Shown: positions 2 to 26,023, counted from the first letter of the stretch. The stretch is DNA of 64,000 bases from Spirochaetota bacterium (GCA_016934735.1 JAFGSG010000063.1:33361-97360), one strand, 5' to 3'. The notes: a model not told the origin generated them from the sequence alone. Program-made: numbers and translations.

Positions 2-2335
2 AATCCTATACAGACAGTGGTAGTGGACAGAAACGGCAGAATAATAGAGTTCAATAAGGCAAAGGAAACATCCGGGGACAGAATGCCTCAAATAGGGAAT
101 ATAATGTATAAAGAATATGCCGCGCATCATAAGAACGATATGCATAAAGAGCTTATGGAATGCATTACATCCGGGGAAATGCGCGAATATCCCGAGCAGA
201 TCTACAGAGATAAAATTCTGTCCATTAAAATATCCCCATTCGAAGAAGGCGCTATTATCACAACACAGGATATCACTTTGCAAAAAAAAGCCGAAGAGGA
301 ACTTAGAAAAAGCGAAGTAAAATTCAGATTTATAACAGATAACATGCTTGATCTTGTTTCCATGTGCGACAGTGAAGACAGAATGACCTTTAAAAGCCCT
401 TCGCACGAACGGATATTAGGCTATAAAAACAACGAAATCCTTGGAAGAAAAATATATGAGGACGTTTATCCCGACGACGTTGCCGGGTTTAAAGAAAAAA
501 TTCAACTTTTAAAACACAGTTCAAAACCGGACTCCGCGATATACAGGCACAGGCATAATGACGGACATTATATCTGGCTTGAAACATACGGGCACGGCAT
601 TTTTACTCCTGAAAACGAATATATAGGTTCTATATTCTGTTCAAGGGATATTACTGCCCGGAAAAACGCGGAAGAAAAAATAGAACATCTGAATGAACTG
701 CTCTATGCAATAAAAAACGTGGATCAGCTTATTGCTCATGAAAAAAACATAAACAGGCTTCTACAGAGCATCTGCGACTGTCTTATCCAGTCAAGAGGGC
801 ACATGAACGCATGGATAGCATGTGCTGATTCAGGAGACAATATCATTGTAGCGTCTGCCCCGCAATTCAATAGCAAATCTTCAGCCTTTTTTAAAACGCA
901 AAAAAACATCAACTCCTTAAAATGCTTTAACTTAATCAAAGACAACTCTGGAATTGCAATCATCGGCGATATAGCATATTGCGAAGAATGCAGGCTGGTG
1001 GAACAGGACCAGACTGCCGATAGAATGGTTATCAGGCTTGAATACAATAATAAAATATACGGCCTTATGAATGTGGGCGTACTCCCGGAGTTTATACACG
1101 AAGAACAGGAAAAATCACTCTTGGAAGAAGTTGCAGGAGAAATAGCGTTTTGTTTATACAACAGCGAACTTGAAAAAGAAAAAAAAGAACTGCAAAAACA
1201 GCTCTACAGATCAGCCAGGCTTTCCGCTGTGGGGCAGCTTGCCGCAGGAATAGCACATGAATTCAACAACATGCTTTCCGTGATCCTTGGACATACGCAG
1301 CTTTCGCTGGAAGAAGATTCAATTGACGAGATTAAACAATCTTTAAAAGAGATAGAAAAAACAACTAAACGCGGAAGCGGTATTGTAACCAAACTGGCAG
1401 CGTTTGCAAAACCGAAAGAACCTGACTTCAAAAATCAGGACATCCACAGAATTATAGACGAAGTTATTTCATTGCAAAAGAAACAGCTGCATCTGGATTC
1501 CATTATTGTTGAAACAAAATACAATTCAAAGTCAAAAATATCCATGGACCGCGGCCAGATGGAGCAGGTATTTTTAAATCTACTAATAAATTCCATTCAT
1601 GCTATTAAGCCGAAAAGCAGAGGAAAGATAGTAATTACAACTGCTGACATAAACGGAGAAGTAGAAATCCGCTTTTCCGACAATGGAATAGGCATGGACA
1701 AAGAAGTAAAATCAAAGGTTTTTGATCCTTTTTTCACGACAAAAGGCGCGTGGGCCAAAGACGGCCTTGGAATATCCGGAACCGGCCTGGGACTTCCAAT
1801 TACCCATTCCATTATTAAACAGCATAATGGTACAATTACGGTCAAGAGCCAGAAAAACAAAGGCACAACCTTTATTATTTCACTGCCCATTGATATATCC
1901 AGCAGAGTTGCAGAAGAAATACCTGCTTATAATATTCCCAAACAGGATATTGAAAAAATGAAAAGAATGCGTATTCTTCTTGTTGATGACGAATATGAAA
2001 TGACCGATATATTTAAACATCTTTTTAAAAAGGCCGAATTTCAGAATTTCAAGACAGAAAACAACGGGGAAAAGGTTGTGTCTATTTTTAAAGAATTTAA
2101 GCCTGATATTGTCTTTCTTGATATTATTATGCCGCAAATGAACGGAGAAAAAATTTTTAAGGAGATCAAAACTCTCGATAATACTACCCCTATAGTATTC
2201 ATGAGCGGTAAAGTCGATTTTGAAAAAGACGCATACATTGAAAACGGTGCATTCGACTACATTCAAAAACCTTTTGAAATAAACCAAATATATACCATCC
2301 TTAACAAAATCAGAAAGACTGGAGACCAAAACTAA
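2..2335 (+). CDS. Hybrid sensor histidine kinase (PAS-PAS-GAF-HisKA-HATPase_c-REC). Probably 5'-truncated by the window edge: the track start at 17 is GTG and the frame is open to position 2.
   Basis: H-box ARLSAVGQLAAGIAHEFNNMLSVILGH. ATP-lid motifs DNGIGM, FDPFFTTKG, GTGLGLPITHSII. C-terminal receiver RILLVDDEYEM...FLDIIMP with the conserved Asp. Confidence 0.85.
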   Translation, partial: NPIQTVVVDRNGRIIEFNKAKETSGDRMPQIGNIMYKEYAAHHKNDMHKELMECITSGEMREYPEQIYRDKILSIKISPFEEGAIITTQDITLQKKAEEELRKSEVKFRFITDNMLDLVSMCDSEDRMTFKSPSHERILGYKNNEILGRKIYEDVYPDDVAGFKEKIQLLKHSSKPDSAIYRHRHNDGHYIWLETYGHGIFTPENEYIGSIFCSRDITARKNAEEKIEHLNELLYAIKNVDQLIAHEKNINRLLQSICDCLIQSRGHMNAWIACADSGDNIIVASAPQFNSKSSAFFKTQKNINSLKCFNLIKDNSGIAIIGDIAYCEECRLVEQDQTADRMVIRLEYNNKIYGLMNVGVLPEFIHEEQEKSLLEEVAGEIAFCLYNSELEKEKKELQKQLYRSARLSAVGQLAAGIAHEFNNMLSVILGHTQLSLEEDSIDEIKQSLKEIEKTTKRGSGIVTKLAAFAKPKEPDFKNQDIHRIIDEVISLQKKQLHLDSIIVETKYNSKSKISMDRGQMEQVFLNLLINSIHAIKPKSRGKIVITTADINGEVEIRFSDNGIGMDKEVKSKVFDPFFTTKGAWAKDGLGISGTGLGLPITHSIIKQHNGTITVKSQKNKGTTFIISLPIDISSRVAEEIPAYNIPKQDIEKMKRMRILLVDDEYEMTDIFKHLFKKAEFQNFKTENNGEKVVSIFKEFKPDIVFLDIIMPQMNGEKIFKEIKTLDNTTPIVFMSGKVDFEKDAYIENGAFDYIQKPFEINQIYTILNKIRKTGDQN

Positions 2336-2612
2336 CGATTTCGCGGTATTTTAAAAAATACCATACTAACACAACAAATTCATTGCTTAACACTGTAAAC
2401 TATATTGCGTTAATTTATAAATTTTAGTATTAAAATTTATAAATACTTGACAAAGAAATAATTCGTATTTATTTTTGTTCTCATTAAATTAATAGAAAAT
2501 ACTATTTTTATTATTTTGTTGCTTTTTTCGCGATTATTTTTAATATGCCGTTTATCAGCAAGCTTTAATTAAGCGAAGACTCACTATTTTCCCATAGGGG
2601 ACACGTTTTACC

Positions 2613-3950
2613 ATGAGAAATAAATGTGCTGATGCATACCAGGAAGTTCTCTCCACAGGCCGTCTAAACTCCGACAACTACACCTTGGCAGATTTTTACA
2701 CTATAGACAGCGATGACATTTTTACCAAGACTGTACCGTATTATGAATACGTCAAAGATTATAAAGAAAAAAAATACTATTCATATCAACGGCAGCTTGT
2801 TTCTGCATGCAATCATAGAGTAAAAGTGAAAGATCCATGGACCGGTGAAATAAAAGAAATGATAATGATGGGTTCTAATAACTATCTGGGTCTCATCACT
2901 CATCCAAAAGTTGTGGAAGCAGGCATTAATGCATATCAGCGGTATGGTTCCGGCGCAAGTTCCGCACCTCTTTTAAGCGGCACTTATGACATTACCCGTG
3001 AACTCGAGTTAAAGTTAGCAAAGTTTAAAGGCACTGAGGACGCGCTTGTTTTCTCAACCGGTTATTCCGCAAATGTTGGCACTATAAGCGCTCTGCTTAG
3101 GCCCGGTGATGTGGCCATAATAGACAAACTTGATCATGCAAGCATTATTGACGGGTGCAGGCTTTCCGGAGCAGATTTGCGGACATTCAAACACCAGGAT
3201 ATTGACAGCCTTGAAAAATGTCTTGAAACATGCAAAGACAAATATAAAGGAAAACTAATAATAGTCGACGGTGTTTATAGCATGGATGGTGACATTTGCC
3301 CTCTACCCGAAATAAAAAAAATGTCTGATAAATATGATGCTAGACTTATGGTTGATGATGCTCATGCGACCGGCGTTATAGGACTGTACGGGAAAGGTAC
3401 GGCTGAATATTTCAACATGGAAGATCATGTCGATTTGATCTTAGGCACTTTCAGTAAAACTCTCGGGGCTGTCGGAGGCTTTGTTGCCGCTTCAACAAAA
3501 GTAATAAATTATTTACGTTTTTACAGCCGTTCGTATTTCTTTTCTGCAGCTCTACCACCAAACATTTGTGCAACTGTGAAAGCAGCGATCGAAGTTATTG
3601 AAGAACAACCGGAACTTATTCAACAATTGCATAATAATGTTGAATATCTTCATAGCAAGTTGAAGAATCTTGGATTGCGTGTTACTCCTCCCGGAACCGG
3701 AATAATAACGGTCATTCTTAATGATGAAGTAACACTCCGAAAAATGAGCAAAGTAATCCATGAAAAAGGCCTTTTCATTAATCCTTTACCATTTCCGTCA
3801 GTGCCAAGAGGCGAACCGCGCTTTAAATTAAGTTTAATGGCTACGCATACGCAGGAAGCTTTAGACGAAGCAGCGAATATATTTGAAGAAGCGTGTAATG
3901 AATTTGATATTATAGAGTCCAAAGTTTATGCAATGTTAGCATCTGTTTGA
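2613..3950 (+). CDS. PLP-dependent alpha-oxoamine synthase family acyltransferase (BioF/KBL/serine palmitoyltransferase/CqsA-like), with an N-terminal extension of about 70 aa.
   Basis: GSNNYLGL glycine-rich motif. DDAHATGV. PLP-lysine motif GTFSKTLGAVGG. Length 445 aa. RBS agggga upstream. Confidence 0.85.
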   Translation: MRNKCADAYQEVLSTGRLNSDNYTLADFYTIDSDDIFTKTVPYYEYVKDYKEKKYYSYQRQLVSACNHRVKVKDPWTGEIKEMIMMGSNNYLGLITHPKVVEAGINAYQRYGSGASSAPLLSGTYDITRELELKLAKFKGTEDALVFSTGYSANVGTISALLRPGDVAIIDKLDHASIIDGCRLSGADLRTFKHQDIDSLEKCLETCKDKYKGKLIIVDGVYSMDGDICPLPEIKKMSDKYDARLMVDDAHATGVIGLYGKGTAEYFNMEDHVDLILGTFSKTLGAVGGFVAASTKVINYLRFYSRSYFFSAALPPNICATVKAAIEVIEEQPELIQQLHNNVEYLHSKLKNLGLRVTPPGTGIITVILNDEVTLRKMSKVIHEKGLFINPLPFPSVPRGEPRFKLSLMATHTQEALDEAANIFEEACNEFDIIESKVYAMLASV

Positions 3951-3960
3951 ATAATCCTTT

Positions 3961-5364
3961 ATGTATAAAAAAAACTCCAGTGATTTTTCAGCAGACTTTA
4001 TAATTATTGGTTCAGGTTTAGGTGGTCTTATTACCGCTGCATATCTAGCACGTGCAAAATACCGTGTACTAGTTCTTGAAAAAAATAGTGAAATAGGCGG
4101 TAAATGCGCAACACGTACGATAAATGGCTATAGATATGTCATCGGGGCAAATGGTTTCGGAAGCAGAACGGCTAGTATTTTACAAAATTTTGGAATCAAT
4201 ATAAAATGGATTCCAGCTTCATTTCATATCTATGGAAAAAATGGTTCCCTTAAATTTCCCTTCACATTTTTATCTTTCAAAGAACTTAAAACATTTGGAA
4301 TGAATTATTATTCAATTTTAAAAATGTGTGCTAAACTTGGTAAAACGATACTGTTGCCAAGTTTAGCAGGTAAAACATACCGTAATTATATCGATTATTT
4401 AATCGATGAGCCGGATGCAAAAGAGTTATTGTTCCTTGAAGCATGGTATGTCGGATCACATCCCGATTGGTTGTCTGCCTCTGCTTTAAAATTCTTTATG
4501 GGTACCTTCTATGGATTTAATAAACCTATTTATCCATTAAGTGGAGCGCAGGCTATTCCGATAGCACTTTCAGACTACATCAAAATTCATGGAGGTACTG
4601 TATTAACCAAACAGAATGTTACAAAAATTGGCATCGAAAATGGTACAGCAAAAGTAGTTCAGGTTGGTAGAGATTGGTTCTCTGCAAAATATGCAATAAT
4701 CAGCAATGCAGAAACTGCTCAAACACTTTCCATGCTTAACGATAAGAAGGAAATATTTCCAATAAAAAATAATTATTTATCTCCGAAAAGTGCATTCTCA
4801 TTTGCATTATTACTTTTGTCTTTAGATGCTAATAAAGCCCCTAAAACAATCGCTAATCCAAATCCTTCTCTAGAGACCAACTCTCCATTGCTTATCAGGC
4901 CTATATGTGAAATCATTGGTGAGCTAGAAAAAGGGGAAATCAACAATTCTCCGGTTTGTAATCTCGTGTTATCAGATCTTAAAGCGCAATTGATGAGTGG
5001 CGCCCGACTAACACATCTGCCTGTTCATGTATCAATTCTTTGGCCTCAAAAGCTGCAAAAAAAATTAAATCTTAAATCCCTAACTCAATCTATTTTAATA
5101 GAGATAAATAAACGATATCCAGGCTTTGCTGATGCAGTTACATCTTCCCAATGGTTAACCCCAACAGATTATAAAAAACGCTTTGATTTCTCAAGCAATC
5201 CAGCACCGATCCTTGAAACACCAACTTATACTAAACAATCTTGGAAATTGCCAGTAAATGGTCTTTATAATGTAGGTGCAACTGTTTTACCTTCAGGATC
5301 TCATACAGGAACAGCGATTGAATCAGGTCGCTTATGCGCTAAAGATATTTTAAATTACATCTAA
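3961..5364 (+). CDS. FAD/NAD(P)-binding oxidoreductase, phytoene-desaturase / amine-oxidase superfamily.
   Basis: N-terminal Rossmann dinucleotide motif IIIGSGLGGLITAAYLA...VLVLEKNSEIGGK. About 467 aa, as in the CrtI-like family. Starts 10 nt after the AOS stop, so likely co-transcribed. Confidence 0.7.
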   Translation: MYKKNSSDFSADFIIIGSGLGGLITAAYLARAKYRVLVLEKNSEIGGKCATRTINGYRYVIGANGFGSRTASILQNFGINIKWIPASFHIYGKNGSLKFPFTFLSFKELKTFGMNYYSILKMCAKLGKTILLPSLAGKTYRNYIDYLIDEPDAKELLFLEAWYVGSHPDWLSASALKFFMGTFYGFNKPIYPLSGAQAIPIALSDYIKIHGGTVLTKQNVTKIGIENGTAKVVQVGRDWFSAKYAIISNAETAQTLSMLNDKKEIFPIKNNYLSPKSAFSFALLLLSLDANKAPKTIANPNPSLETNSPLLIRPICEIIGELEKGEINNSPVCNLVLSDLKAQLMSGARLTHLPVHVSILWPQKLQKKLNLKSLTQSILIEINKRYPGFADAVTSSQWLTPTDYKKRFDFSSNPAPILETPTYTKQSWKLPVNGLYNVGATVLPSGSHTGTAIESGRLCAKDILNYI

Positions 5365-5419
5365 GTTAGCTTTTTATTTTTTTTCTCTAGTACCATTTAA
5401 TATCAAAAGGATAAAGGCC

Positions 5420-6589
5420 ATGCATGTAAAAGTATATAATAGCATTACAGAAATAGACGAAGAAAAATGGAATGCATTAATAGGGAGAAATCGCATTATC
5501 TGTTCTTTCAAATTTTTACTAGCTGTTGAAAAATCTCATATAAACGATTGTGAATATTACTATCCCGTTGTTTACGAAAATAATCAAATAATAGCTCATG
5601 CATGCACATATTCAATCACTACAGATTTGGATACACTTGCAAAAGGTATAAGTAAAAAAATAATTCAACTAATTCGCTTCTTCTGGAAAAATTTTTTAAA
5701 AATTAAATTTTTAGAGTGTGGTACACCAATAGCAATTGGAAATACAATATCTTTTGCTGAAAATATCGATAAAAAAAAAGCATTAAACATACTAGTGGAT
5801 TGTGTAGAGAAAATCGCAAATAACAGACGTTTAAATATTATTCTTTTCAGAGATTTTTACGAGGATGAAATTAACTTTTTTAACGATTTAAACAAAAAAA
5901 AATATAAAAAAGTAAATAATCTTCCTAATGCAATTCTTAAAGTAAAATGGAATAGTTTTGATGAATATATAAATGATCTCAGAAGTCATTATAGATATAA
6001 ATTTAATAAATATTTAAATAAAATAAAACAGGAAAAAATAAAAGTTGAATTATGTAATGATTTTATAGATATCGCTGAAAATCTTCAAACCTTATGGCAA
6101 AATGTTTATGATAATGCGAAAGAATACAAGAGAGAAATTCTTACAAAAGATTTTTTCATTTATTTGAATTCATATTTAAAAAATAAAGCAAAAATTATAT
6201 TATTGAAAAAAGATTTAAAAATTATCGGATTTGCATTATTATTAATCGATAATGATATCTTAAGGTTTATGTTTTCAGGAATTGATTATAAGTATAACAT
6301 TGAGCACTCTACATATTTTAATTCTCTTTTGTGTATTGTTAATCAAGCAATTATTGAACAAAAAAAAGAAATAGATATTGGCCTTACAACCTACATTCCG
6401 AAAATGAATGTTGGTGCAAAAATCGTAAATTTATATATGTATATAAAACACACAAACAGACTGCTTAATCCATTAATAACCAACCTCTTTACTATCATGA
6501 ATCCAAAAATAGAAATAAAAACAAATAATGTCTTTAAAGAAAAAATTGAAAATAAATTTGCAAAAAAATATTCGTTAATACATAATTAA
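5420..6589 (+). CDS. FemAB-like GNAT acyltransferase (Acetyltransf_6 / BioF2-associated family).
   Basis: About 390 aa. N-terminal EEKWNALI motif and overall layout typical of the FemAB-like GNAT family that is repeatedly found next to or fused with BioF2-like AOS genes. Extremely AT-rich and K/N/I-rich. Confidence 0.55.
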   Translation: MHVKVYNSITEIDEEKWNALIGRNRIICSFKFLLAVEKSHINDCEYYYPVVYENNQIIAHACTYSITTDLDTLAKGISKKIIQLIRFFWKNFLKIKFLECGTPIAIGNTISFAENIDKKKALNILVDCVEKIANNRRLNIILFRDFYEDEINFFNDLNKKKYKKVNNLPNAILKVKWNSFDEYINDLRSHYRYKFNKYLNKIKQEKIKVELCNDFIDIAENLQTLWQNVYDNAKEYKREILTKDFFIYLNSYLKNKAKIILLKKDLKIIGFALLLIDNDILRFMFSGIDYKYNIEHSTYFNSLLCIVNQAIIEQKKEIDIGLTTYIPKMNVGAKIVNLYMYIKHTNRLLNPLITNLFTIMNPKIEIKTNNVFKEKIENKFAKKYSLIHN

Positions 6590-6641
6590 TATAGTCTTAT
6601 AAAAATTACTTAATTATAATGGTTTTTCCGATAAAGATGTA

Positions 6642-8291
6642 ATGATAAATCCATTAAATACAAAAATGGAGCTCAGTGTTCGAGCTACCCATACTTTTTT
6701 TTTGGCTTTTGAAAAGCAATATGGGAAAAGTGAACTGACCAAACTTATTGATGGAACCGGAATGTCTTTGGATTACTTTGATGACGAAAATAACTGGATA
6801 TCATATGATTATTTCTGCCATGTATTAGATAAAATAGTTGATATTTCAGGTGATCCGAATTATGCATATAAACTTGGATTAACAGCAGCTAAAAGTAATA
6901 GCTGGGGACTAATAAAACTAATAATTACAACTTTTGTTAGCTGTACATATACATATAAAAAAGTAATCTCATTAAGTCCGAGATGGGCAAAAAGCGGGAA
7001 ATTTAACTTTTTAAAAATTAAAAAAAATAAGGCAACACTTGAATATAAATTACGAGAAGATTTAAAACAATATAAAAATAATTGTCTTAGCATACAAGGC
7101 CAATTAGCGTCTATCCCTACTTATTATAATCTCCCCCCTGCAAAAATACGCGAACTCCAATGCGCAGCAGATGGAGCAGATTCGTGCATTTACGAAATCA
7201 GCTGGAAAAATCCACCATATAAAAAAATGGGTTTTTATTTTTTTTTAGCAGGAATTGCATTCTCTATACTACTATATTATTTATACCGACATTCATTCAT
7301 TTCATTATCATTTATTCATGCACTGGTATTTATTATTATCCCGGCAGCAGGTTATTCAATATGGAAGCTGATAAACGATAAAGAAACAATTAAGGATAAT
7401 TATAAAAAAATTGAACAACAAAACGAAGTGCTTACAAAACACCTTGAAGAAATTGAAAAGCTTAACGAGATACTTCAAAACAAAGTTGAAGAAAAAACCA
7501 ATGAACTTCTGGCAAGCAATGACGATTTAAGAATGAAGATAACCGACCTTAAAAACAACGAGGATGAATTAATCAGATCGGGTAAAATGTCAATAATTGG
7601 GAAAATTTCCGAGGAAGTTGCGGATAAATTAAAAAAGCCTCTGAATAAAGTGCATAAAATACTGGCAGATGTAACAGGTAAAACTCACGAAGACACCATA
7701 AAGAGCAGTCTTACAGGCGCGCAAAGAGCAGCAGACAGATGTGAAAAAACGCTCAACGAACTTCTATCCTTTTCACATATCGGGAATAATTTATCTGTTC
7801 ATGGAGTAGATGTAAATAAATTAATCGAAGAGTGCGCGAATAAAGCAAATGAACAAATATCCAATCCGGATATCAAAATATGTACAAAATTTACAAATGA
7901 TCTGCCTATAATTTCGGCAGATTATAAGCAGATAGAACAAATTATAATGATTTTTATAACAAACGCTAATGACGCAATTAACGAGGCCTTAAAAAATAGC
8001 AATAAGAAAGAAGGTGAAATCTCAATACAGACATCCTTTCAGGACAATAATATCCTCATTGAAATTAAAGACACTGGATCCGGAATCCCCAACGAGGTAA
8101 TAAAAAAAATATTTGATCCATTTTTCTCCACAAAAAGTACGAGCAAAAGAAAAGGCATGGGCCTTACATTAAGCTATAACTATATTAAACAGCTTGGCGG
8201 AAAAATTGACGTAAAAAGCGATGAAGGCAAAGGTACTACATTTACAATTGCTTTTCCGGTAACGGAAAATAATAATACTTTTATTAAGTAA
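6642..8291 (+). CDS. Membrane-anchored histidine-kinase-like protein with a cytoplasmic XylR-A/V4R-like sensor domain. The phosphoacceptor His is replaced by Asp; the ATP-binding domain is intact.
   Basis: N-terminal ~195 aa ends ...NNCLSIQGQLASIPTYYNLPPAKIRELQCAADGADSCIYEISW, a V4R-like Cys motif. Two TM helices (FYFFLAGIAFSILLYYLY / ALVFIIIPAAGYSIW). DHp helix GKISEEVADKLKKPL aligns gaplessly with the paralog's AGVAHEINNPM. N-box NANDAI, G1 DTGSGI and G2 GMGLTL are present. Confidence 0.75.
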   Translation: MINPLNTKMELSVRATHTFFLAFEKQYGKSELTKLIDGTGMSLDYFDDENNWISYDYFCHVLDKIVDISGDPNYAYKLGLTAAKSNSWGLIKLIITTFVSCTYTYKKVISLSPRWAKSGKFNFLKIKKNKATLEYKLREDLKQYKNNCLSIQGQLASIPTYYNLPPAKIRELQCAADGADSCIYEISWKNPPYKKMGFYFFLAGIAFSILLYYLYRHSFISLSFIHALVFIIIPAAGYSIWKLINDKETIKDNYKKIEQQNEVLTKHLEEIEKLNEILQNKVEEKTNELLASNDDLRMKITDLKNNEDELIRSGKMSIIGKISEEVADKLKKPLNKVHKILADVTGKTHEDTIKSSLTGAQRAADRCEKTLNELLSFSHIGNNLSVHGVDVNKLIEECANKANEQISNPDIKICTKFTNDLPIISADYKQIEQIIMIFITNANDAINEALKNSNKKEGEISIQTSFQDNNILIEIKDTGSGIPNEVIKKIFDPFFSTKSTSKRKGMGLTLSYNYIKQLGGKIDVKSDEGKGTTFTIAFPVTENNNTFIK

Positions 8292-8322
8292 TTTTTTAAA
8301 ATTACGAAAAAATAGCAATTAT

Positions 8323-9945
8323 ATGAAACGCGAAGACCTGGACCCAAAACTCATAAAACTAGAACATAGTGTTAAAGCGATCGGCCATTTACTCCAATCA
8401 TTTGAAGCGGACTATGGCAAGGATGAGCTTGTTAAATTTATGGATAGAACAGGAATTCCGCTTGAATATTTTAACAACAAAAACAACTGGGTAAGCTTCG
8501 ACTATTTTCTGACTTTACTTGACCAACTTGTTGAACACACCGGAAATCCGCAAATAGCTTTTAAATACGGTTTAAACACTGTAAAATACGGCGATACATG
8601 GGGAATACTGAAAACACTTTTTACTATAATACCCTCACCCATGTATATGTATAAATCCGCAATTAGATTTAATGGCAGATATAGTAAAGTAACCATAAGT
8701 AAAATAAATGAACTAAATAAAAATAAAGTTATAATTGAATTTGGTTTTAAAGAAGGTTATAAAACTAATGTGAATAATTGTCTCAATATACAAGGAAGCC
8801 TTGTATCTCTACCAACATATTTTAACATGCCTGTTGCTGAAGTAAAAGAACTGCAATGTGCTGCCAAGGGCGCAGACACATGTGTTTACGAAGTAACATG
8901 GCAGGAAATAACCAATAAAAAAAATAAATTTTTTTCTTTACTTACGGGCATCTTTGCCGTATACTTATTGTACGCTGTAATCAATTGGTTCGGTTTAGAT
9001 ATAAACACATTAATTAAAATAATATTGTGTGCGATTCCAATCGCGTTCTACAGCGTGGGCCGCGCCATTGATTACAAAATGACAATACGCGACAACATGG
9101 AGGTAGCACAGGACCAGAACAAGGCGACAATTGAATCTCTGGAAAATGTTCAGGAAATAAACGAAGAACTTCAGAGAAACATCGACCGGAGAACCCAGGA
9201 ACTAAAAATTACCAACAGAAAACTTGCAGAAACAGTGATCCTCATACAAAAAAGCGAGCAAGACCTGCTGACAGCGGAAAGAATGGCAGGCATAGGACAG
9301 CTTGCCGCAGGCGTGGCCCACGAGATCAATAATCCAATGGGTGCTGTAAGAAACTACCTGCAGGATGTTCTGGAAGATATCCCTGATAATGATCCGCGGA
9401 GACAGGCTCTTATAGAAGCGGAGAAAGCCACAAAAGAAAGTAAGATATTAATAAACGACCTCCTGTCATTTTCAAGGACTTATGAGAATTTATATATTGT
9501 CGATATTGACGTTAACGAAGTACTGGAAAGGATCTGCGAGAGAATCAAGTTTTCAAATTTAAATATTAAAATTAATAAATACTTGACTCCCGGCATTCCT
9601 TTGATAAAATCAGACCAGATGCAGGTGAATCAGTCATTAAACAACATAATTCTAAATGCCTGCAACGCTATAAAAGAGAATGGATTGATCGCGGTAAGGA
9701 CTTCGTCCGGTCCGGAAGGCATCCATATCGAAGTAACAGATAACGGAGAAATAATTCCGCCGGATCTACTGGATAAATTTTTTGACCTGTCCGGTATGGA
9801 ATTTAAATGGGTGGGAAGAAAAGACCTTGAAATCGCGATGAGCTACAGCATAATTAAACGCTTTAACGGAGATATAACAGTAAGCAGTTCAGTTGAGAAC
9901 GGCACAATATTTAAAGTTCTAATTCCTTATATAATTAAAGTATAA
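8323..9945 (+). CDS. Paralogous membrane-anchored sensor histidine kinase with an XylR-A/V4R-like sensor domain. H-box intact; ATP-binding G1/G2 motifs degenerate.
   Basis: Sensor domain ...NNCLNIQGSLVSLPTYFNMPVAEVKELQCAAKGADTCVYEVTW. TM hairpin. H-box ERMAGIGQLAAGVAHEINNPMGAV. G1 reads DNGEII (second Gly lost). The G2 region reads GRKDLEIAMSYS instead of GxGLGL. Confidence 0.75.
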   Translation: MKREDLDPKLIKLEHSVKAIGHLLQSFEADYGKDELVKFMDRTGIPLEYFNNKNNWVSFDYFLTLLDQLVEHTGNPQIAFKYGLNTVKYGDTWGILKTLFTIIPSPMYMYKSAIRFNGRYSKVTISKINELNKNKVIIEFGFKEGYKTNVNNCLNIQGSLVSLPTYFNMPVAEVKELQCAAKGADTCVYEVTWQEITNKKNKFFSLLTGIFAVYLLYAVINWFGLDINTLIKIILCAIPIAFYSVGRAIDYKMTIRDNMEVAQDQNKATIESLENVQEINEELQRNIDRRTQELKITNRKLAETVILIQKSEQDLLTAERMAGIGQLAAGVAHEINNPMGAVRNYLQDVLEDIPDNDPRRQALIEAEKATKESKILINDLLSFSRTYENLYIVDIDVNEVLERICERIKFSNLNIKINKYLTPGIPLIKSDQMQVNQSLNNIILNACNAIKENGLIAVRTSSGPEGIHIEVTDNGEIIPPDLLDKFFDLSGMEFKWVGRKDLEIAMSYSIIKRFNGDITVSSSVENGTIFKVLIPYIIKV

Positions 9946-10016
9946 CCTTTTAACAATTTGTCGGATGTGGTTTTGTTCAATGCAAAATTGAACTATACTC
10001 AATAAGTTCATAAAAT

Positions 10017-10042
10017 AGCCCGGCCTTAGAGGGCTTTATGTT
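10017..10042 (+). terminator. Possible rho-independent terminator after the tandem kinase genes. Hand-derived coordinates, +/- 2 nt.
   Basis: agccc-ggccttaga-gggct stem-loop followed by ttatgtt. Confidence 0.35.
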
Positions 10043-10131
10043 CTTACTCAGTATATATTGCTATATATAATAGTTTATGCAAATGCCGGCAGAACACAAT
10101 TTAGTCAATCTTTGACACCCGGCCTGGTTGG

Positions 10132-10163
10132 TATTCCTTTTCACAGAAGCCGGAAAAGGAATA
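10132..10163 (+). promoter_or_regulatory. Perfect 10-bp inverted repeat (tattcctttt ... aaaaggaata) with a 12-nt spacer, about 50 bp upstream of the REC-PAS-HK-REC gene. Candidate operator or leader hairpin.
   Basis: Read directly: tattcctttt cacagaagccgg aaaaggaata. A TTGACA hexamer lies about 20 bp upstream. Confidence 0.3.
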
Positions 10164-10213
10164 TATCTTAGCGGATATATTTTACTTTAATGATTATTTC
10201 GAGGAATTAGAAA

Positions 10214-12127
10214 TTGAGTATTAAAAAAGAAGAACGAGTTAACCTCCTTTTAATCGAAGATGATATCGATTTTAAAACTTCATTAGCAAACCGACTTGCT
10301 AAAAATGACTGCAATGTCACAGCTGTCGGGTCTGCAGAAGAAGCGCTGGAATTAGTCGGTTCCGGAAACTACGAGGTAATAGTTTCCGATATTAAACTGG
10401 AAGGAATGGACGGGCTGGAATTTCTTTCCAGGATTAAAAAAATCAATGAAGATTTGCCCGTCATTCTCGTAACCGGGTATGCCAATCTTGATACGGCAAG
10501 ACAGGCGGTTGCCCTGAATGCCTATAACTATCTTCTTAAACCTCTGGAAAATATTTCCGATATACTGATACCAATTAAAAACGCCGTTCAAAGTTATAAG
10601 CTTCAAATCGAAAATAAAACACTAAAAGAACATTACGAAAATATTGTAACAAGTGTTCCTGACGGGATTTTAACAATAAACAGCTCTACTTTAAAAATTG
10701 AATCCGTAAATAAAACATTTTTGAAAATATTCAATACATCTGAAAAAGAAGTGCTGAATAAAAAAATTGATAAAATATTTGATAAAGAAGTTACTGATAA
10801 AATAAAATATCTCATGGAATCGCTCGGCCTGGACGGGAACGCTCTGTCTTTCGAGTGGCTCACATTAAACCAGAACGAAAAAATATTCTGGGCGAATATC
10901 ACGCTAAAAAGAGCTGTAATCGGCAAGAAGGAAAGCATCCTCATGGTTGTCTCGGATATCACCAATTTAAAGCGGGCGGAAGAAGATAAAAAAGAACTGG
11001 AAGTACAGTTCATCCAGATGCAGAAACAGGAAACTATCGGAAGCCTTACGGGAGGGATAGCACACGAATTCAACAATATACTTTCAATAATTTTGGGGCA
11101 TGCTCAGCTTTCTTTAAGTGAAAATGCCAGTCCTGAACTGAAAAAATCACTGACAGAAATTGAAAAAGCAACCATGCGCGGAAGCAGTTTAGTCGAGAAT
11201 ATGACTACATTCGCAAGCCCAAACCAGCCGGCTTTAATACCGCAGGATATCCGGGATAGCATTGACAGCGTTCTGCAGATGCAGGACAGGCAACTGCGTT
11301 TTCAGAATATTGAAATCGAAAAAAATTATTCCAATGAACTCGTTGCGCTATTCGATTCCGGTCAGATGGAACAGGCTATCTTAAATTTATTAATAAATTC
11401 CATGCATGCCATAAAACCGAAAGGGAAAGGCAAAATCTCAATAACCGTCCGCGATCTGGAAAATTCTATTGAGATAATCTTTCAGGATACCGGGATAGGC
11501 ATGAGTCAGGAAACGCAGGAAAAAATATTTGATCCTTTCTTTACAACCAAAGGCGCATACTCAAAAGACGAACATGATATATCCGGAACCGGATTGGGAC
11601 TCTCAGTAACAAATGCGATAATTAATCAGCATCATGGCTCAATTTCGGTTGGGAGCGAAGTGAATATCGGAACTACATTCAGAATAGGCATCCCTGCGGC
11701 AAAAACAGCCCTTGAAGAAAAAATAATAACGGCTGAATTATCACAAAACATCAACATGGAAAAGATCAGAAACCTCCGTATACTGCTTGTAGAAGATGAA
11801 GACGAAATAGTTAAATTGCTGAAACTAGTTTTTAAAAAGGCCGGATTAAAAAATTTTTTAATTGAACAAAACTCCAAAAAGGCAGTGAAAGCCTTTATTG
11901 ATTTTAACCCGGATATTGTTTTTATTGATCTGATAATGCCGGAAATGAACGGGAAACAGGTTTTTGAAGAAATAAAAAAAATAAATGAAAAAGTGCCTCT
12001 TGTGCTTATGAGCGGAAAAATTAATATAAAAAAGGAAGAACTTTCACAAATGGGTTCTTATGATTATATAAAAAAACCGTTCAATATAAACGATTTATAT
12101 AAAATCCTTGATAGAGTATCTTTATAA
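10214..12127 (+). CDS. Hybrid two-component protein REC-PAS-HisKA-HATPase_c-REC.
   Basis: N-terminal receiver LLLIEDD...VIVSDIKLEGMDG. H-box GSLTGGIAHEFNNILSIILGH. DTGIGM/GTGLGLSV. C-terminal receiver RILLVEDEDE...FIDLIMPEMNG, very similar to the C-terminus of the first kinase. Confidence 0.85.
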   Translation: MSIKKEERVNLLLIEDDIDFKTSLANRLAKNDCNVTAVGSAEEALELVGSGNYEVIVSDIKLEGMDGLEFLSRIKKINEDLPVILVTGYANLDTARQAVALNAYNYLLKPLENISDILIPIKNAVQSYKLQIENKTLKEHYENIVTSVPDGILTINSSTLKIESVNKTFLKIFNTSEKEVLNKKIDKIFDKEVTDKIKYLMESLGLDGNALSFEWLTLNQNEKIFWANITLKRAVIGKKESILMVVSDITNLKRAEEDKKELEVQFIQMQKQETIGSLTGGIAHEFNNILSIILGHAQLSLSENASPELKKSLTEIEKATMRGSSLVENMTTFASPNQPALIPQDIRDSIDSVLQMQDRQLRFQNIEIEKNYSNELVALFDSGQMEQAILNLLINSMHAIKPKGKGKISITVRDLENSIEIIFQDTGIGMSQETQEKIFDPFFTTKGAYSKDEHDISGTGLGLSVTNAIINQHHGSISVGSEVNIGTTFRIGIPAAKTALEEKIITAELSQNINMEKIRNLRILLVEDEDEIVKLLKLVFKKAGLKNFLIEQNSKKAVKAFIDFNPDIVFIDLIMPEMNGKQVFEEIKKINEKVPLVLMSGKINIKKEELSQMGSYDYIKKPFNINDLYKILDRVSL

Positions 12128-13537
12128 AGAATTCAGATATCCCTCTATTCCCTGAGCAGCCTGCCTTCCCTGCGAGATTGCCCTTACAACAAGCGAAGCT
12201 CCGGATGCAGAATCTCCTGCTGCGAAAATTCCGTCGATATTCGTCATATAATCCGCGTTAACTTTAATATTGCCCCGTGAATCAGTGCTAATCCCCATAT
12301 TCTTAATCAGTTCATGCTCAGCATGAAGAAATCCCATAGCGAGAAAAACAATGTCGGCTTTTATAGCAATATCAGTTCCGGGCAACTCTCTCATTCTATA
12401 GGAATATTTTTCATCGTAATACCATTCAACCTGCACTGCTGTGATGCTGCTAACTCTCCCGTTATCCCCATCGAATCTTTTTGTCAATATATTCCAATAT
12501 CTTTCACAGCCTTCTTCGTGAGAGCTTGATGTCTTTAAAAGTTTAGGCCAAAGCGGCCACGGTTCATCATCTGTTCTGTGCTCCGGCGGCTTAGGCAAAA
12601 GCTCTATCTGTGTTATATTTGCAGCGCCCTGCCTGTTTGCGGAACCGACACAGTCTGAACCCGTATCGCCGCCGCCTATAACCACAACGTTTTTATTATA
12701 TGCCCTTATGAGTTCCTGTTCGGGAATTACATCGCCTCTCACGATCTTATTCTGCTGGGTAAGATATTCCATAGCAAAATAAATACCGGTCAAGTCCCTG
12801 CCGGGTATCTCAAGGTTCCTCGGTTCACGCGCGCCGATTGTCAGACAAATTGCATCAAACTCGTCTTTTAATTTTAAAATATCACTGCCTATCCTCACAC
12901 CGGTTTTAACAATAAGACCTTCCTGTTTTAATATATTCACCCGCCTGTCAATTATGTTTTTGTTGAGTTTAAAATCCGGAATACCGAACCTTAAATAACC
13001 GCCGACACTGTCTTCAGCTTCATAAAGTACAACCGTATGCCCTGCTTTGTTTAAAATATCCGCACACGCAAGGCCTGCCGGGCCGCTGCCTATTACAGCT
13101 ATCCTTTTACCTGTCCTATTCTTCGGCGGCCTTGGCACAACATAACCCTCTTTGAACGCTTTTTCGATTACAAAAAGCTCATTATTTCTTATGGTTACCG
13201 CCTCGTCATTAATTGAAAGCACACATGATGCTTCGCACAAAGCAGGGCAAACGCGGCCGGTAAACTCAGGAAAATTATTTGTCTCCTGTAAAATTCCATA
13301 TGCTGCCTTATAATCTCCCCTGTAGATCATATCCTGCCACTCAGGCATCATATTCGAGACCGGACAGGCCCAATGACAGAAAGGGACTCCGCAATCCATG
13401 CACCTGGAAGCCTGAAGCTTTCTGGCCTGCTCCGGAAGTTCCTGTTCAACTTCATGATAATCCCTGACACGCTCCTCTATAGGCCTGTAGCCGCCTTCTT
13501 CCCGTTTTATGTTTAAAAAACCTGACGGATTACCCAT
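12122..13537 (-). CDS. gltD: Glutamate synthase (NADPH) small subunit.
   Basis: GRVCPALCEASCVL Fe-S motif. FAD/NAD(P) Rossmann motifs IAVIGSGPAGLACA and VVVIGGGDTGSDC. Its start overlaps the gltB stop. Confidence 0.85.
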   Translation of the reverse strand: MGNPSGFLNIKREEGGYRPIEERVRDYHEVEQELPEQARKLQASRCMDCGVPFCHWACPVSNMMPEWQDMIYRGDYKAAYGILQETNNFPEFTGRVCPALCEASCVLSINDEAVTIRNNELFVIEKAFKEGYVVPRPPKNRTGKRIAVIGSGPAGLACADILNKAGHTVVLYEAEDSVGGYLRFGIPDFKLNKNIIDRRVNILKQEGLIVKTGVRIGSDILKLKDEFDAICLTIGAREPRNLEIPGRDLTGIYFAMEYLTQQNKIVRGDVIPEQELIRAYNKNVVVIGGGDTGSDCVGSANRQGAANITQIELLPKPPEHRTDDEPWPLWPKLLKTSSSHEEGCERYWNILTKRFDGDNGRVSSITAVQVEWYYDEKYSYRMRELPGTDIAIKADIVFLAMGFLHAEHELIKNMGISTDSRGNIKVNADYMTNIDGIFAAGDSASGASLVVRAISQGRQAAQGIEGYLNSL

Positions 13538-16500
13538 TAGAATATTTCCTCCAATTGCTCTTCTTCCCTGATCTTCTTGAGCTTCTCATCGATCATAGAA
13601 ATTTTTATTTCATTCATAGCGCGTTTGTATTCAAACGAAATTACTTTGATAAACTTAGGAAGATAATCATACCAGTTCTTGAGTATATCTTTCGCGTTGC
13701 TGCTGTCCGTGTATTTAATATGTTTCTGAAGCAATTCCAGTATAAAATCCTGATCTTCATAATCCCTTACCTGTGACAATTCAACCATACCCTTGTTGCA
13801 GAAATAATCAAAATTGCCGTCCCTGTCCAATACATATGCAATCCCACCGCTCATGCCTGCTGCGAAGTTGCGGCCCACTCTGCCAAGCACTATTATGCGT
13901 CCGCCGGTCATGTATTCTGCGCAATGATCGCCGGTACCCTCAACAACCGCTGTTGCGCCGCTGTTTCGCACGCAGAAGCGTTCGCCCGCTATGCCGCGGA
14001 TAAAGGCTTCTCCCCCAGTAGCGCCGTATAGTACGGTGTTGCCGACTATTATGTTCTCCTCAGCTTTAAAGACTGAATCCCGCGAAGGCGTAACTATAAG
14101 CCTGCCGCCGGAAAGCCCCTTGCCGAGATAATCGTTGGAATCGCCTTCAAGGCGGAATGTGATTCCCTTTGCAAGAAAAGCGCCGAAGCTCTGCCCGGCA
14201 CTTCCGCGGAACACGCATTCAATGCTGTTGTCCGGAAGTCCGGCGTCACCGTATTTCCGGGAGATCTCATATGAAAGCATGGCGCCTGTAGCGCGGTCCG
14301 TATTGCTTACCTGCATTTCAATGTTTATCCGGCTTCTGTTTTCATCGCTCATTGCCGGCTTTGACTTTTCAATTAGCACTTTATCGAGAACATTTTCAAT
14401 CTTGTGTATCTGACATTCAATGCAGTAACCAGTATTCCTTCCGGCTTCCGGGGATCTGTAAAGTATCCCGGAAAGATCGACTTTCCCTGCTTTCCAGTGA
14501 TCAATATTTCTTGATATTAAGAGATCGGTTCTGCCGATGAGCTCATCAAATCTCCGTACTCCTATCATGGCCATAATCTCGCGTACTTCCCGCGTTAAAA
14601 ATGTAAAATAATTGATAAGATGCTCCGGCCTGCCTTTAAATCTTTTTCTTAGCTCAGGGTCCTGAGTGGCTATACCGACAGGGCATGTATTTATATGGCA
14701 TTTTCTCATCATCACGCATCCGAGGGAAATGAGCGTTCCTGTTCCGAAACCGAATTCCTCTGCACCCAGAAGCGCTGCAATGACAATGTCCCTGCCTGTT
14801 TTTAACTGACCGTCCGTCTGTAGGCGCACTCGTCCCCTGAGATTATTCCGGACTAGGGTCTGATGCGTCTCTGACAGGCCGAGCTCCCATGGCAGTCCCG
14901 CATGCTTTATTGAGCTTAAGGGGCTTGCGCCTGTGCCTCCGTCGTATCCGCTTATTAGAATATTGTCAGCATGCGCCTTGGCAACCCCGGCTGCGATAGT
15001 GCCTACTCCGGCTTCCGAAACGAGCTTAACGCTTATCCGCGCATTCGGATTGGCGTTCTTAAGATCGAATATCAGCTCCGCAAGATCCTCTATCGAATAA
15101 ATGTCATGATGAGGAGGAGGCGAAATTAGAGTAACACCCTGTGTGGAATAGCGCGTCTTTGCTATTATTCTGTCTATCTTGTGTCCTGGAAGCTGGCCGC
15201 CCTCGCCCGGCTTCGCTCCCTGAGCGATCTTAATCTGGATCTCATCCGCATTTGCAAGGTAATTGCTGGTCACTCCGAATCTGCCCGAAGCTACCTGCTT
15301 TATCGCGCTTCTGGCAAATGAGCAATCCTGACGCATAAGGAATCTACCCGGATCCTCTCCGCCTTCCCCGGAATTGCTTCTTCCGCAGATAGCATTCATG
15401 GCAACACCGATAGTTTCGTGCGCCTCCCTGCTTATCGACCCGTAAGACATTGCGCCTGTTGTCAGGCGTTTCAGAATACCGGGCAACGGTTCAACTTCCT
15501 CGACAGGAATCGGATTGTTCTTAAAATCAAGCAGACCTCTGATGACATGAGGCCTACGGTTGCTTTCATCCACAAGCCCGGAAAACTCTTTATACCTAGC
15601 GTAATCCGACGTGCGCACTGCCCACTGCAGAAGGCGTATTGTATCCGGGGTCCACGCATGCCTCTCGCCGCTCTTTCTGTACTGATACACACCCTGTGAT
15701 TCAAGAGAGGATATTTTTTGATAAGCTGATTCATGTTTCATCAGAGATTCTTTTGCAATTTCCTTTATTCCTATACCACCAATCCTTGAATCTGTTCCAG
15801 AAAAATATTTATCTATAACTTCTTTTCCAAGTCCCACTGCTTCGAATATCTGCGCACCCCGGTAGCTCCTAAGAGTGGAGGTACCCATTTTAGACAGCAC
15901 CTTCAGGAGACCCTTGTTTACAGCCTTGATATAATTATCAACCGCATGCTCACTGTCAATATCAGAAGATAATTTTCCACGTTTATATAAATCCTCTACT
16001 ACAGCGATCGCGCCATAAGGATTCACAGCGTCTGCGCCGTAACCGAAAAGAAGGGCAAAATGCATCACTTCCCTGGGTTCCGCCGACTCTATTACTAGCC
16101 CGGCCATTGTTCTCTTCCTGGATCTTATAAGATGATGATGCACACCGGCGCATGCAAGAAGAGACGGAACGGGCGCTTTATCGCAGCCGGTTTCCCTATC
16201 AGATATTATTATGATGGTATTTCCGCTATCAATACTTTCCTCTGCTTCAGCACACATCCTCTCGATAGCAGCTTCAAGACCGGATACGCCGTCACTGACA
16301 TTGAATGTTGCATCAATTACCGCTGGTCTGAAATTGGAATTGTTTATGTTTTTCAGCTTCTGAATATCCGGCTGAGAAAAAACCGGACTTGTAAATTTAA
16401 TTACCCTGCAAAGCTCCGGATCCCCGGATAGAATGTTTGTATATGAACCTATGAAACTGGTTAATGTCATGACAAGTTCTTCGCGTATTGAGTCAATGGG

Positions 16501-18072: not shown

Positions 18073-18236
18073 AATTTTATCACTTCGATTTTTAATAATT
18101 CCTTTATATTTAAAAATAATGGTACAATTTAATTATAGACAACATTATCTTAACAAGACAAATTTATATTGTCACTGTTGAAATAATTATATTTTACAAA
18201 AACATAAAATCAAACTAATTTTAAGGCAAATTAACA

Positions 18237-18270
18237 AAAATGCCTGCTGTTATAATGCAGCCGGCATTTT
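18237..18270 (-). terminator. Rho-independent terminator downstream of the amidotransferase-GXGXG gene. It separates the upstream operon from gltBD. Coordinates +/- 2 nt.
   Basis: aaaatgcc-tgctg-ttataa-tgcagcc-ggcatttt hairpin (8+4 bp) with T-tracts on both sides. Confidence 0.55.
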
Positions 18271-18305
18271 AAGCACCGCTTTTTATATGTTATTTGTTTT
18301 TTGTT

Positions 18306-20951: not shown

Positions 20952-21002
20952 GAAAAAACCTCGCTATATAACAGGTATGCGATTCACAAATGTTGTTTAT
21001 AT

Positions 21003-23925: not shown

Positions 23926-23935
23926 TTATATCCTC

Positions 23936-25521: not shown

Positions 25522-25642
25522 TGCTTTACTCCTCGCAGTGTCTTTTAATAAATCATCTTAACTGATTTTCCCATTCCTAAAAGCATAAACGAATCGATAA
25601 AACAGTTAATTATTATAATATTATAAATAACAGTCAAAGCTT

Positions 25643-26023
25643 TCAGCCAAGTAATTCACGTGTTAGTTTATCAACTGTATAATTATTCCCGGCTTTGAGA
25701 CGGATAAGCTCAAGCATTCCGCGTTCAAGTCCGATTTCTTCGATCAAGTTCTGCGTATATAACAGTCTTTTTCGTGCGCGGATATTACCTTCTCTATAGC
25801 GGCACGCCCCTTCCGGGCATGTGACAACATAAACCTTATCCGCGCCGGATTCAATCGCGCGCATCAGGTGCAGCGGTTCTATCCGTCCGCTGCATGGAAT
25901 CGGAAAAAATCTGATCTGAGGTCCGAATTCTTTTTCAATGGAACGCCGGTTAACATCCTGATTTTTATCTATCTGCTGGCAAAAGAAAATTGCGTATTTT
26001 TTTCCTGCATTCGTTTTCTTCAT
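25643..26023 (-). CDS. mvhD: MvhD/FlpD-like [2Fe-2S] hydrogenase-delta-type electron-transfer protein.
   Basis: PCSGRIEP...GADKVYVVTCPEGACRYREGN signature of the FlpD/MvhD family. 126 aa. Confidence 0.7.
   Translation of the reverse strand: MKKTNAGKKYAIFFCQQIDKNQDVNRRSIEKEFGPQIRFFPIPCSGRIEPLHLMRAIESGADKVYVVTCPEGACRYREGNIRARKRLLYTQNLIEEIGLERGMLELIRLKAGNNYTVDKLTRELLG

Follow-up and report, generated by a model that had tools for sequence, protein, structure and literature searches.

A predicted haem-less H-NOX-type sensor domain on two tandem histidine kinases beside a biosynthetic cassette in a Spirochaetota bacterium

In the 64,000-nucleotide stretch of Spirochaetota bacterium DNA that was analysed here (GCA_016934735.1 JAFGSG010000063.1:33361-97360; "the window" denotes this whole stretch), two tandem histidine kinases, HK1 and HK2, are encoded directly downstream of a short series of biosynthetic genes. 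The arrangement raises the question of what the kinases sense, and whether the signal is made by the enzymes next door. On balance, we lean towards the view that the cassette and the kinases form a system in which the synthesis of a hydrophobic product is coupled to a lipid-sensing kinase pair with a haem-less H-NOX-fold input domain. The two reading frames, and the parts of their products that precede the kinase core, are as follows.

6642-8291, plus strand: HK1, histidine kinase open reading frame, 549 residues
6642-7226, plus strand: HK1 N-terminal sensor domain, residues 1-195, assigned to the H-NOX/V4R superfamily as a haem-less member, predicted zinc ligands C148, E171, C174 and C182
7227-7364, plus strand: HK1 predicted two-helix membrane hairpin, residues 196-215 and 224-241 with an 8-residue loop, hydropathy peaks 1.86 and 2.17
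8323-9945, plus strand: HK2, histidine kinase open reading frame, 540 residues
8323-8922, plus strand: HK2 N-terminal sensor domain, residues 1-200, same assignment, predicted zinc ligands C153, E176, C179 and C187
8929-9060, plus strand: HK2 two-helix membrane hairpin, predicted from hydropathy, residues 203-223 and 230-246 with a 6-residue loop

HK1 and HK2 are tandem paralogues, with 36% identity overall and 44% over the N-terminal domain (the first ~200 residues). In both proteins, a hydrophilic N-terminal domain of about 195-200 residues is followed directly by a pair of hydrophobic helices, with Lys-rich flanks on the N- and C-terminal sides of the hairpin. According to the Pfam scan, both end in a HATPase_c domain, and HK2 has a clear HisKA domain. 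There is no hydrophobic stretch in the first 40 residues of HK1 or HK2 (maximal Kyte-Doolittle value over 12 residues below 1), and hence no signal peptide. Among 122 relatives, the domain stands at the extreme N-terminus, with no transmembrane segment before it, in 117, and one or two hydrophobic segments (by a crude threshold) follow it directly in 104. The order of N-terminal domain, hairpin and effector is thus the norm in the sensor family. The sensor domain, like the kinase core, is predicted to be cytoplasmic. A periplasmic sensor was also considered, and was ruled out by the lack of a signal peptide, the even number of transmembrane helices and the Cys3 metal site. In these respects an earlier reading of the DNA, the first-pass annotation, holds up well. 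Its span, 6642-8910, takes in the whole of HK1 and the N-terminal domain of HK2, and it had described two tandem kinases that start with a soluble domain of about 195 residues, followed by a two-helix hairpin that leaves sensor and kinase core in the cytoplasm. Its motif string for the domain end was a loose but essentially correct transcription of the actual sequence, which is NNCLSIQG...RELQCAADGADSCIYEISW in HK1 (residues 146-188) and NNCLNIQG...KELQCAAKGADTCVYEVTW in HK2 (residues 151-193).

To which fold does the sensor domain belong? The AlphaFold2 model of HK2 residues 1-200, built with a 38-sequence alignment, has a mean predicted local distance difference test value (pLDDT) of 94.3 and a predicted TM-score (pTM) of 0.91; the HK1 domain is 44% identical in sequence to the modelled HK2 domain. 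Structure comparison of the HK2 model gave the following scores, each with the extent of the match in brackets.

S. oneidensis H-NOX: 15.6 (173 of 187)
Nostoc H-NOX: 14.3 (175)
K. algicida H-NOX: 13.5 (172)
M. tuberculosis VirS N-terminal fragment: 13.4 (175)
Soluble guanylate cyclase (sGC) beta1 H-NOX: 12.1 (169)
T. tengcongensis H-NOX: 12.0 (163)
YslB: 9.7 (117)
Bet3: 9.6 (132)
DmpR: 9.4 (130)
PoxR: 9.0 (132)
MJ1460 (V4R): 8.2 (121)
CdpR: 7.7 (136)

Foldseek agrees with this ranking. The top 38 matches to the HK2 model are all H-NOX proteins (E 2e-7, TM up to 0.72), and TRAPPC3 with covalently bound palmitate (6aq3, E 3e-4) and DmpR (E 1e-3) follow far behind. In view of the scores and of the Foldseek agreement, the sensor domain is modelled as a complete H-NOX-type fold, of which V4R proteins share only a part. 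The assignment to H-NOX rests on structure comparison, since hhalign of the family against T. tengcongensis H-NOX (query sequence checked to be identical to 1U4H) gave a probability of only 27.7%, over the N-terminal helices.

At the sequence level, the domain defines a family of its own. With a profile built from the HK1 and HK2 domain copies, an exhaustive HMMER search of 1.84 billion proteins (cluster representatives at 50% identity) retrieved at least 1192 representatives at E<=1e-3, which makes the domain far more than a chance resemblance; of these, 412 reach E<=1e-10 and 47 reach E<=1e-30. A word-indexed homologue search found nothing with a single N-terminal domain sequence, and one protein with the profile. 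In 63 full-length relatives that were scanned, HATPase_c is present in 56 and HisKA in 53, and GAF, REC, GGDEF, cyclase or HD domains occur in some. The sensor domain is therefore the mark of a large, mostly kinase-linked family, for which none of the Pfam and NCBIfam models in the searched libraries scored at or above cut-off. The fusion to a kinase, which the first-pass annotation had regarded as unusual, is common in this family.

Among known families, V4R (PF02830) matches HK1 with 11.8 bits and HK2 with 15.3-16.8 bits, below the gathering score of 31 bits and over the last ~22 residues only. Neither XylR_N (PF06505) nor PF12625 ("Arabinose_bd") matches the window proteins at E<=1, the Pfam scan found no HNOB (PF07700) match in HK1 or HK2, and an NCBIfam search with the sensor domain returned nothing meaningful. 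Weak matches were found in relatives. PF12625 was hit in 18 and V4R in 16 of the 63 full-length proteins; among 38 domain-only relatives, V4R was hit in 27 (best 1e-6), PF12625 in 18 (best 2e-9) and HNOB in one (E 0.19). XylR_N is not among the families listed for either set. No AraC-type helix-turn-helix is found among the 25 most frequent Pfam families of the 63 relatives, and the output modules in the window are HisKA and HATPase_c. Sequence searches of the PDB with 2- and 38-sequence profiles gave no significant match, the best being H-NOX 4u9b (E 0.78) over the Cys motif only. By sequence, the family thus appears to sit between V4R and the AraC N-terminal domain.

These data bear on the possibility that the sensor is a genuine XylR/DmpR-type V4R effector domain, which would sense an exogenous aromatic compound or hydrocarbon and have nothing to do with the neighbouring enzymes. 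The first-pass annotation had pointed in this direction by reading the domain end as a V4R signature. The signature stands as a metal-site motif that is common to V4R and H-NOX, and the wider placement in the V4R/H-NOX fold group is supported by structure comparison and Foldseek. As a V4R domain proper, the match fails (12-17 bits against 31), and with XylR_N never matching, a strict XylR-A/V4R module is not what the kinases carry. Moreover, the structural match to H-NOX and VirS is far stronger and extends over the full length, there are no aromatic-catabolism genes nearby, and the strict synteny with biosynthetic genes across seven phyla, described below, would be left unexplained. We regard this possibility as very improbable.

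If the fold is that of H-NOX, does the domain bind haem? Conservation was counted over 136 aligned members of the family. H-NOX proteins have the proximal His without exception (PMC7108781). In the helix alpha-F region, with the register checked by hhalign against T. tengcongensis H-NOX, no column of the family alignment contains more than 7% His, and neither HK1 nor HK2 has a His there; outside the metal-ligand column, no family column exceeds 11% His. The Y-x-S-x-R motif is not kept either, as the residues aligned to YSSPR of S. oneidensis H-NOX are YKTNV in HK2 and LKQYK in HK1, and the motif positions are occupied by Y in 38%, Q in 41%, and R or K in 63% of the family. Without the proximal His and the Y-x-S-x-R motif, haem binding by the sensor domain is very unlikely from the sequences. 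The haem motifs, which the first-pass annotation had left to be looked up, are thus absent. A true haem-binding H-NOX sensor for nitric oxide or dioxygen would have the fold in common with the window domain, and yet the lack of the proximal His in the two window proteins and throughout the family, the failure of PF07700 to detect the window proteins or more than the one marginal relative, and the low hhalign probability leave this explanation with next to no chance.

In contrast to the haem motifs, a metal site is strongly conserved. The three motif Cys residues are present in 96-99% of the family, and the fourth ligand column contains E in 68% and H in 24%. In the window proteins, the motif has the spacing C-x22-E-x2-C-x7-C. 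The spacing matches the zinc ligands of S. oneidensis H-NOX, C139/H161/C164/C172 (PMC7108781), and the set of Cys/Glu/Cys/Cys ligands is the same as in DmpR, C151/E172/C177/C185 (PMC7264223). HK1 and HK2 are therefore likely to contain a structural Zn(Cys3Glu) site in their sensor domains. An additional Cys near the N-terminus (consensus ELSCR) is found in 63% of the family; the column is occupied by V17 in HK2 and V12 in HK1.

The metal site invites the alternative that the domain is a thiol or redox sensor, in which oxidation of the Zn-Cys3 centre switches the kinase without any small-molecule ligand. The three Cys residues are the most conserved of the family, and in V. cholerae, haem-free H-NOX uses the homologous Zn-Cys site to sense oxidants and controls a kinase (PMC7108781). 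However, DmpR has the same site in its phenol-bound state (PMC7264223), and the site alone is thus no pointer to redox sensing. A redox sensor would also leave the conserved coupling to biosynthetic and transport genes (see below) unexplained, as well as the replacement of the domain by a multi-pass membrane sensor in the same position of one related locus. We consider a redox sensor distinctly improbable.

What, then, could the ligand be? The answer favoured here comes from the genes upstream of the kinases. The cassette and the genes on either side of the cassette and kinases are listed below.

17-2335, plus strand: PAS-HisKA-HATPase-REC hybrid kinase (Pfam), upstream of the cassette and syntenic with it
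2613-3950, plus strand: alpha-oxoamine synthase (AOS), pyridoxal phosphate (PLP)-dependent, PF00155 at 1.5e-61, catalytic-Lys motif TFSK at residues 279-282, first gene of the cassette
3961-5364, plus strand: flavin adenine dinucleotide (FAD) oxidoreductase of the CrtI/amine-oxidase family, PF01593 and PF13450, TIGR02734 at 2e-22 but below cut-off
5420-6589, plus strand: tandem-GNAT transferase of the Fem/MprF/NMT structural class, Pfam FemAB_like and PF04339
10214-12127, plus strand: REC-PAS-HisKA-HATPase-REC hybrid protein (Pfam), likely phosphotransfer partner

Only short gaps separate the genes for the AOS, the FAD oxidoreductase, the tandem GNAT, HK1 and HK2, which share a strand and probably function together as a unit. 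In other genomes the linkage is conserved. A 9-sequence sensor-domain alignment was used to recover 17 related loci from species-representative genomes. In 11 of them the sensor domain is at least 32% identical to that of HK2, and all 11 come from cassette-bearing genomes. In 10 of these 11 close loci (L003-L012; Spirochaetota, Leptospirales, Marinimicrobia, Desulfobacteraceae, Planctomycetia and Omnitrophota), genes for an AOS and a Fem-like GNAT are found directly upstream of the sensor kinase gene. In the remaining one, L002, the cassette of the metagenome-assembled genome (MAG) is located on another contig, L004. A search seeded with the GNAT (82 homologues) added two loci that repeat the order of AOS, GNAT and sensor kinase, namely L019, whose GNAT protein carries an Elusimicrobiota name at NCBI, and L024. 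The window and 12 related loci thus have an AOS-family gene next to a sensor kinase gene. Fem-like paralogues with identities of 33% or below are found in capsule clusters, without an AOS or kinase, and so the linkage is limited to the orthologous GNAT subfamily.

The cassettes carry further genes that point to the nature of the product. In L011 and L012 (5542-9947), a fatty-acyl-AMP ligase, an 804-residue GNAT-AOS fusion and an acyl carrier protein (ACP) are encoded directly ahead of the sensor kinase, which a REC protein follows. A gene for a FadL/TodX outer-membrane channel, of a family that handles hydrophobic compounds, is found upstream of the AOS gene in L005 (5912-7117), L019 (4323-5582) and L024 (621-1862), and hints that the cassette product crosses the outer membrane. 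Several Fem-like GNATs, and the AOS in one locus, have an N-terminal PilZ domain, which binds cyclic di-GMP (L010 8521-9981; P0161, P0182, P0184, P0185, P0188 and P0191; L020 2698-4356), and the fusions suggest that cyclic di-GMP controls synthesis of the cassette molecule. B12-binding radical-SAM enzymes are recurrent accessories (L008, Planctomycetia, 7415-8761 and 11596-12963; L019 9757-11127; L024 4233-6993) and may tailor the product, for example by methylation. In L020, an AOS/methyltransferase/GNAT cassette is followed by a kinase (8122-10671) in which a multi-pass membrane sensor and a GAF domain replace the H-NOX-like domain. The coupling between enzymes and sensor is thus specific and conserved, and fits a product that is hydrophobic, derived from a fatty acyl group and able to cross membranes. 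The first-pass annotation had proposed the product of the adjacent cassette as a ligand; the strong synteny supports the idea that the sensor detects this hydrophobic product.

The individual cassette genes vary in their conservation. The FAD oxidoreductase is a variable accessory; among the genome loci, phmmer detected it only in L003. L023, in which the locus of the window has been assembled a second time, has it as well, and in L020 an FAD enzyme is encoded on the opposite strand. In L001, L003 and L004, the AOS gene is directly preceded by a gene for an orthologue of the hybrid kinase at 17-2335; in L005 the FadL gene intervenes between the two. A gene of the 10214-12127 type adjoins the HK2-type gene in L001, L002 and L003, and elsewhere a REC or REC-PAS protein is encoded in this place. 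The GC content is 29-36% in the cassette and kinase region (2001-10000), compared with 43-48% in the flanking glutamate-synthase region (12001-26000). The low GC content may indicate horizontal acquisition of the cassette region, yet L003 has the same gene order beside gltD and gltB. The flanking region contains two separate sets of glutamate-synthase genes, at 12122-18072 and at 18306-23925 (minus strand). One is a bacterial gltD/gltB pair, and the other, which precedes an MTHFR gene, consists of split genes (GXGXG, Glu_synthase and Fer4-containing proteins).

The AOS is related to several characterized enzyme types, and closest to the bacterial serine palmitoyltransferases (Spt). Its closest solved chain is Sphingobacterium Spt (8guh, 299 bits), compared with 122 bits for the CqsA structures (2WK7, 3HQT). 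All NCBIfam equivalog cut-offs are missed (KBL 391 against 460, BioF 384 against 426, CqsA-type NF005526 203 against 428 bits), and the scores against the Spt models are 401 against 640, 353 against 500 and 291 against 670 bits. The similarity makes it conceivable that the cassette produces a structural membrane lipid of the sphingolipid or ceramide kind, and that the kinases monitor its level for homeostatic feedback with no signal passing from cell to cell. An AOS followed by an N-acyltransferase would mirror the ceramide steps of Spt and bCerS (PMC11334938), the predicted topology anchors the sensor to the inner leaflet, and the fatty-acyl-AMP ligase and ACP of L011 and L012 resemble lipid pathways. 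On the other hand, there is no CerR-like gene in the first 1-12 kb of the window, the AOS stays below the Spt cut-offs, three loci have FadL/TodX genes, which suggest passage through the outer membrane, and the PilZ fusions suggest regulated, conditional production. We regard a structural lipid as rather unlikely; it differs from the lipid-sensing system that we favour only in the biological role of the ligand.

A second question is why two kinases are present. The catalytic motifs of HK1 and HK2 suggest a division of labour.

7614-7640, plus strand: HK1 degenerate H-box EVADKLKKP, with Asp328 (nucleotides 7623-7625) in place of the phospho-acceptor His, HisKA only at E=0.16
7920-8264, plus strand: HK1 catalytic ATP-binding domain, N, G1 (DTGSGIP), F (FDPFFSTK) and G2 (GMGLTL) boxes intact, HATPase_c 83.6 bits
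9310-9336, plus strand: HK2 canonical H-box GVAHEINNP, with phospho-acceptor His333 (nucleotides 9319-9321), HisKA 36.6 bits
9613-9927, plus strand: HK2 catalytic domain with degenerate ATP-lid boxes, G1 DNGEIIP, F FDLSGMEF and G2 KDLEIAM, HATPase_c 46 bits

Neither HK1 nor HK2 is a canonical HisKA kinase with an acceptor His and intact N, G1, F and G2 boxes in a single polypeptide. The same split recurs in relatives. H-boxes without His are also found in L003, L004 and P0001, and the degenerate G1 box DNG[ED]IIP is kept in L001, L002 and L003. The tandem pair of L003 (8297-11620) combines SSKLKVP with intact boxes in one protein, and AHEINNP with DNGDIIP in the other. In L001, an HK2-type gene encodes AHEINNP and DNGEIIP, and the HK1-type gene is too fragmented to be read. 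The MAG JAZDKB has two His-less kinase copies on the cassette contig L004 (8237-11647), and a His-bearing copy with degenerate G boxes on contig L002 (10001-11632), beside a REC-PAS-HK-REC gene. Almost all of the other family members that were aligned are canonical. Orthologues of each kinase type are about 50% identical between genomes, and HK1-type and HK2-type proteins share about 35% identity; by these values, the kinase duplication and the functional split appear to be old and maintained. The conserved complementary loss suggests that HK1 and HK2 form an obligate heterodimer that phosphorylates in trans. According to Yang and Inouye (1991), EnvZ mutants that lack the His and mutants deficient in ATP binding reportedly complement each other. 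There, as proposed here, one protomer contributes the catalytic domain and the other the acceptor His. The split between HK1 and HK2, recognized here from sequence, differs from the EnvZ case in being natural, in involving two adjacent paralogues, and in being conserved in several genomes.

Taken together, we infer a scheme for the ligand, its binding site, the heterodimer and the route of phosphotransfer. The AOS would condense an amino acid with a fatty acyl thioester to a long-chain alpha-amino-ketone, which the tandem GNAT would N-acylate or N-aminoacylate to a hydrophobic molecule. The product may then partition into the inner membrane or across it, and the two-helix hairpin would tether the H-NOX-like domain at this membrane's inner face. 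The sensor domain would bind the lipid-like product in the cavity that is used for haem in H-NOX and for alpibectir in VirS, and the hairpin, together with a coiled coil, would relay binding to the DHp domain. The proposed type of ligand is in line with the binding of alpibectir by the ligand-binding domain of VirS (PMC13234193) and with the view that V4R domains bind hydrophobic ligands (PMC2253512), as well as with fatty-acyl binding among Bet3 relatives, of which palmitate on TRAPPC3 (6aq3) is the example. In the spirochaete lineage, the kinase would have been duplicated and its function divided, so that the catalytic domain of HK1 phosphorylates His333 of HK2 in a heterodimer. The phosphate would then pass from HK2 to a REC domain of the REC-PAS-HK-REC protein encoded at 10214-12127.

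Several points weigh against this scheme. The whole case is built on sequence, gene order and a structure that was predicted. The AOS falls short of every equivalog cut-off. The cassette is absent from the six loci of lower identity (25-29%; Nitrospirae and Archangium), and the linkage is therefore specific to a subfamily of the sensor family. With its N-box Asn and the Asp and first Gly of its G1 box still in place, HK2 may yet bind ATP, and HK1 could be a non-catalytic modulator instead of the phosphodonor. Scans for promoters and terminators are uninformative in AT-rich DNA; the former gave a single plausible promoter-like site (2447-2475), and the latter did not rise above background.

A bolder extension of the proposed product-sensing system, which we put forward as a tentative possibility that is probably too far-reaching, is that the arrangement of an optional FadL, AOS, Fem-like tandem GNAT, a kinase with H-NOX-like domain and transmembrane hairpin, and REC protein constitutes an undescribed, widespread lipid-autoinducer system in Spirochaetota, Omnitrophota, Elusimicrobiota, Planctomycetota, Desulfobacterota and Marinimicrobia. 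It would have a haem-less cytoplasmic receptor of the H-NOX fold for an N-(amino)acylated amino-ketone, and in the lineage of the window this receptor would be an obligate heterodimer. The pairing of cassette and sensor is a testable candidate for chemical signalling in mostly uncultured phyla with few known signalling systems. Two adjacent paralogues of which one has lost the His and the other its ATP-lid motifs would repeat in nature the classic experiment on complementation by trans-phosphorylation, and would be a useful model for kinase heterodimers. A literature search of incomplete coverage found no paper that describes the sensor-kinase family or the cassette.

How does the system compare with known ones? 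Systems of the CqsA/CqsS and LqsA/LqsS type have an AOS-family enzyme for a fatty-acyl-derived signal encoded beside the sensor kinase that detects it, and the Legionella LqsS-type system has two paralogous sensor kinases. The window resembles CqsA/CqsS in that an AOS-family synthase gene adjoins a sensor kinase gene. However, judged by the bit scores given above, its AOS is no orthologue of CqsA, an extra tandem-GNAT step is obligatory, and the receptor is a predicted cytoplasmic H-NOX-like domain with a two-helix hairpin and not a multi-pass sensor as in CqsS, the multi-transmembrane variant of L020 being the exception. For the ceramide and BioF2 pathways, we know of no coupling to a dedicated sensor kinase. 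The bacterial ceramide pathway of Spt, bCerS and CerR is similar in combining an Spt-like AOS with a second enzyme of the N-acyltransferase type (PMC11334938), and M. tuberculosis BioF2 (Rv0032; PMC12910592) has an extra domain N-terminal to the AOS, as does the GNAT-AOS fusion of L011 and L012. The window differs from the ceramide pathway in its sub-threshold Spt scores, in the lack of CerR, and in having a Fem-like second enzyme (PF04339).

On the sensor side, the family joins H-NOX gas sensors, AraC-type ligand domains, including the drug target VirS, and V4R domains. With bacterial H-NOX proteins (S. oneidensis 4U99, Nostoc 2O09, T. tengcongensis 1U55; PF07700), the window domain has the fold in common, and it differs from them in lacking the proximal His, the Y-x-S-x-R motif and an HNOB match. 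It is also fused in cis to the kinase via a membrane hairpin, whereas in V. cholerae and related bacteria H-NOX is a protein of its own and acts on a partner kinase (PMC7108781, PMC4436077), and its predicted ligand is lipid-like and not a gas. The H-NOX fold thus appears to have been reused without haem as a cis-acting kinase input. The AraC N-terminal domain (PF12625; VirS 8RCW, CdpR 5CHH) is nearest in sequence to the sensor family, and in this case the difference lies in the output, which is a transmembrane hairpin with a histidine kinase in the window and a helix-turn-helix in AraC regulators. The V4R or A domains of XylR, DmpR and PoxR belong to the same superfamily, and are alike in the Cys/Glu/Cys/Cys ligands (PMC7264223), the cytoplasmic location and the hydrophobic ligands (PMC2253512), but the likeness to V4R is confined to the metal motif and a partial fold match. 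We see here a two-component sensor in which a known fold superfamily takes on a new form, without haem, fused to a kinase and tethered to the membrane, and in which the biosynthetic partner is likewise new.

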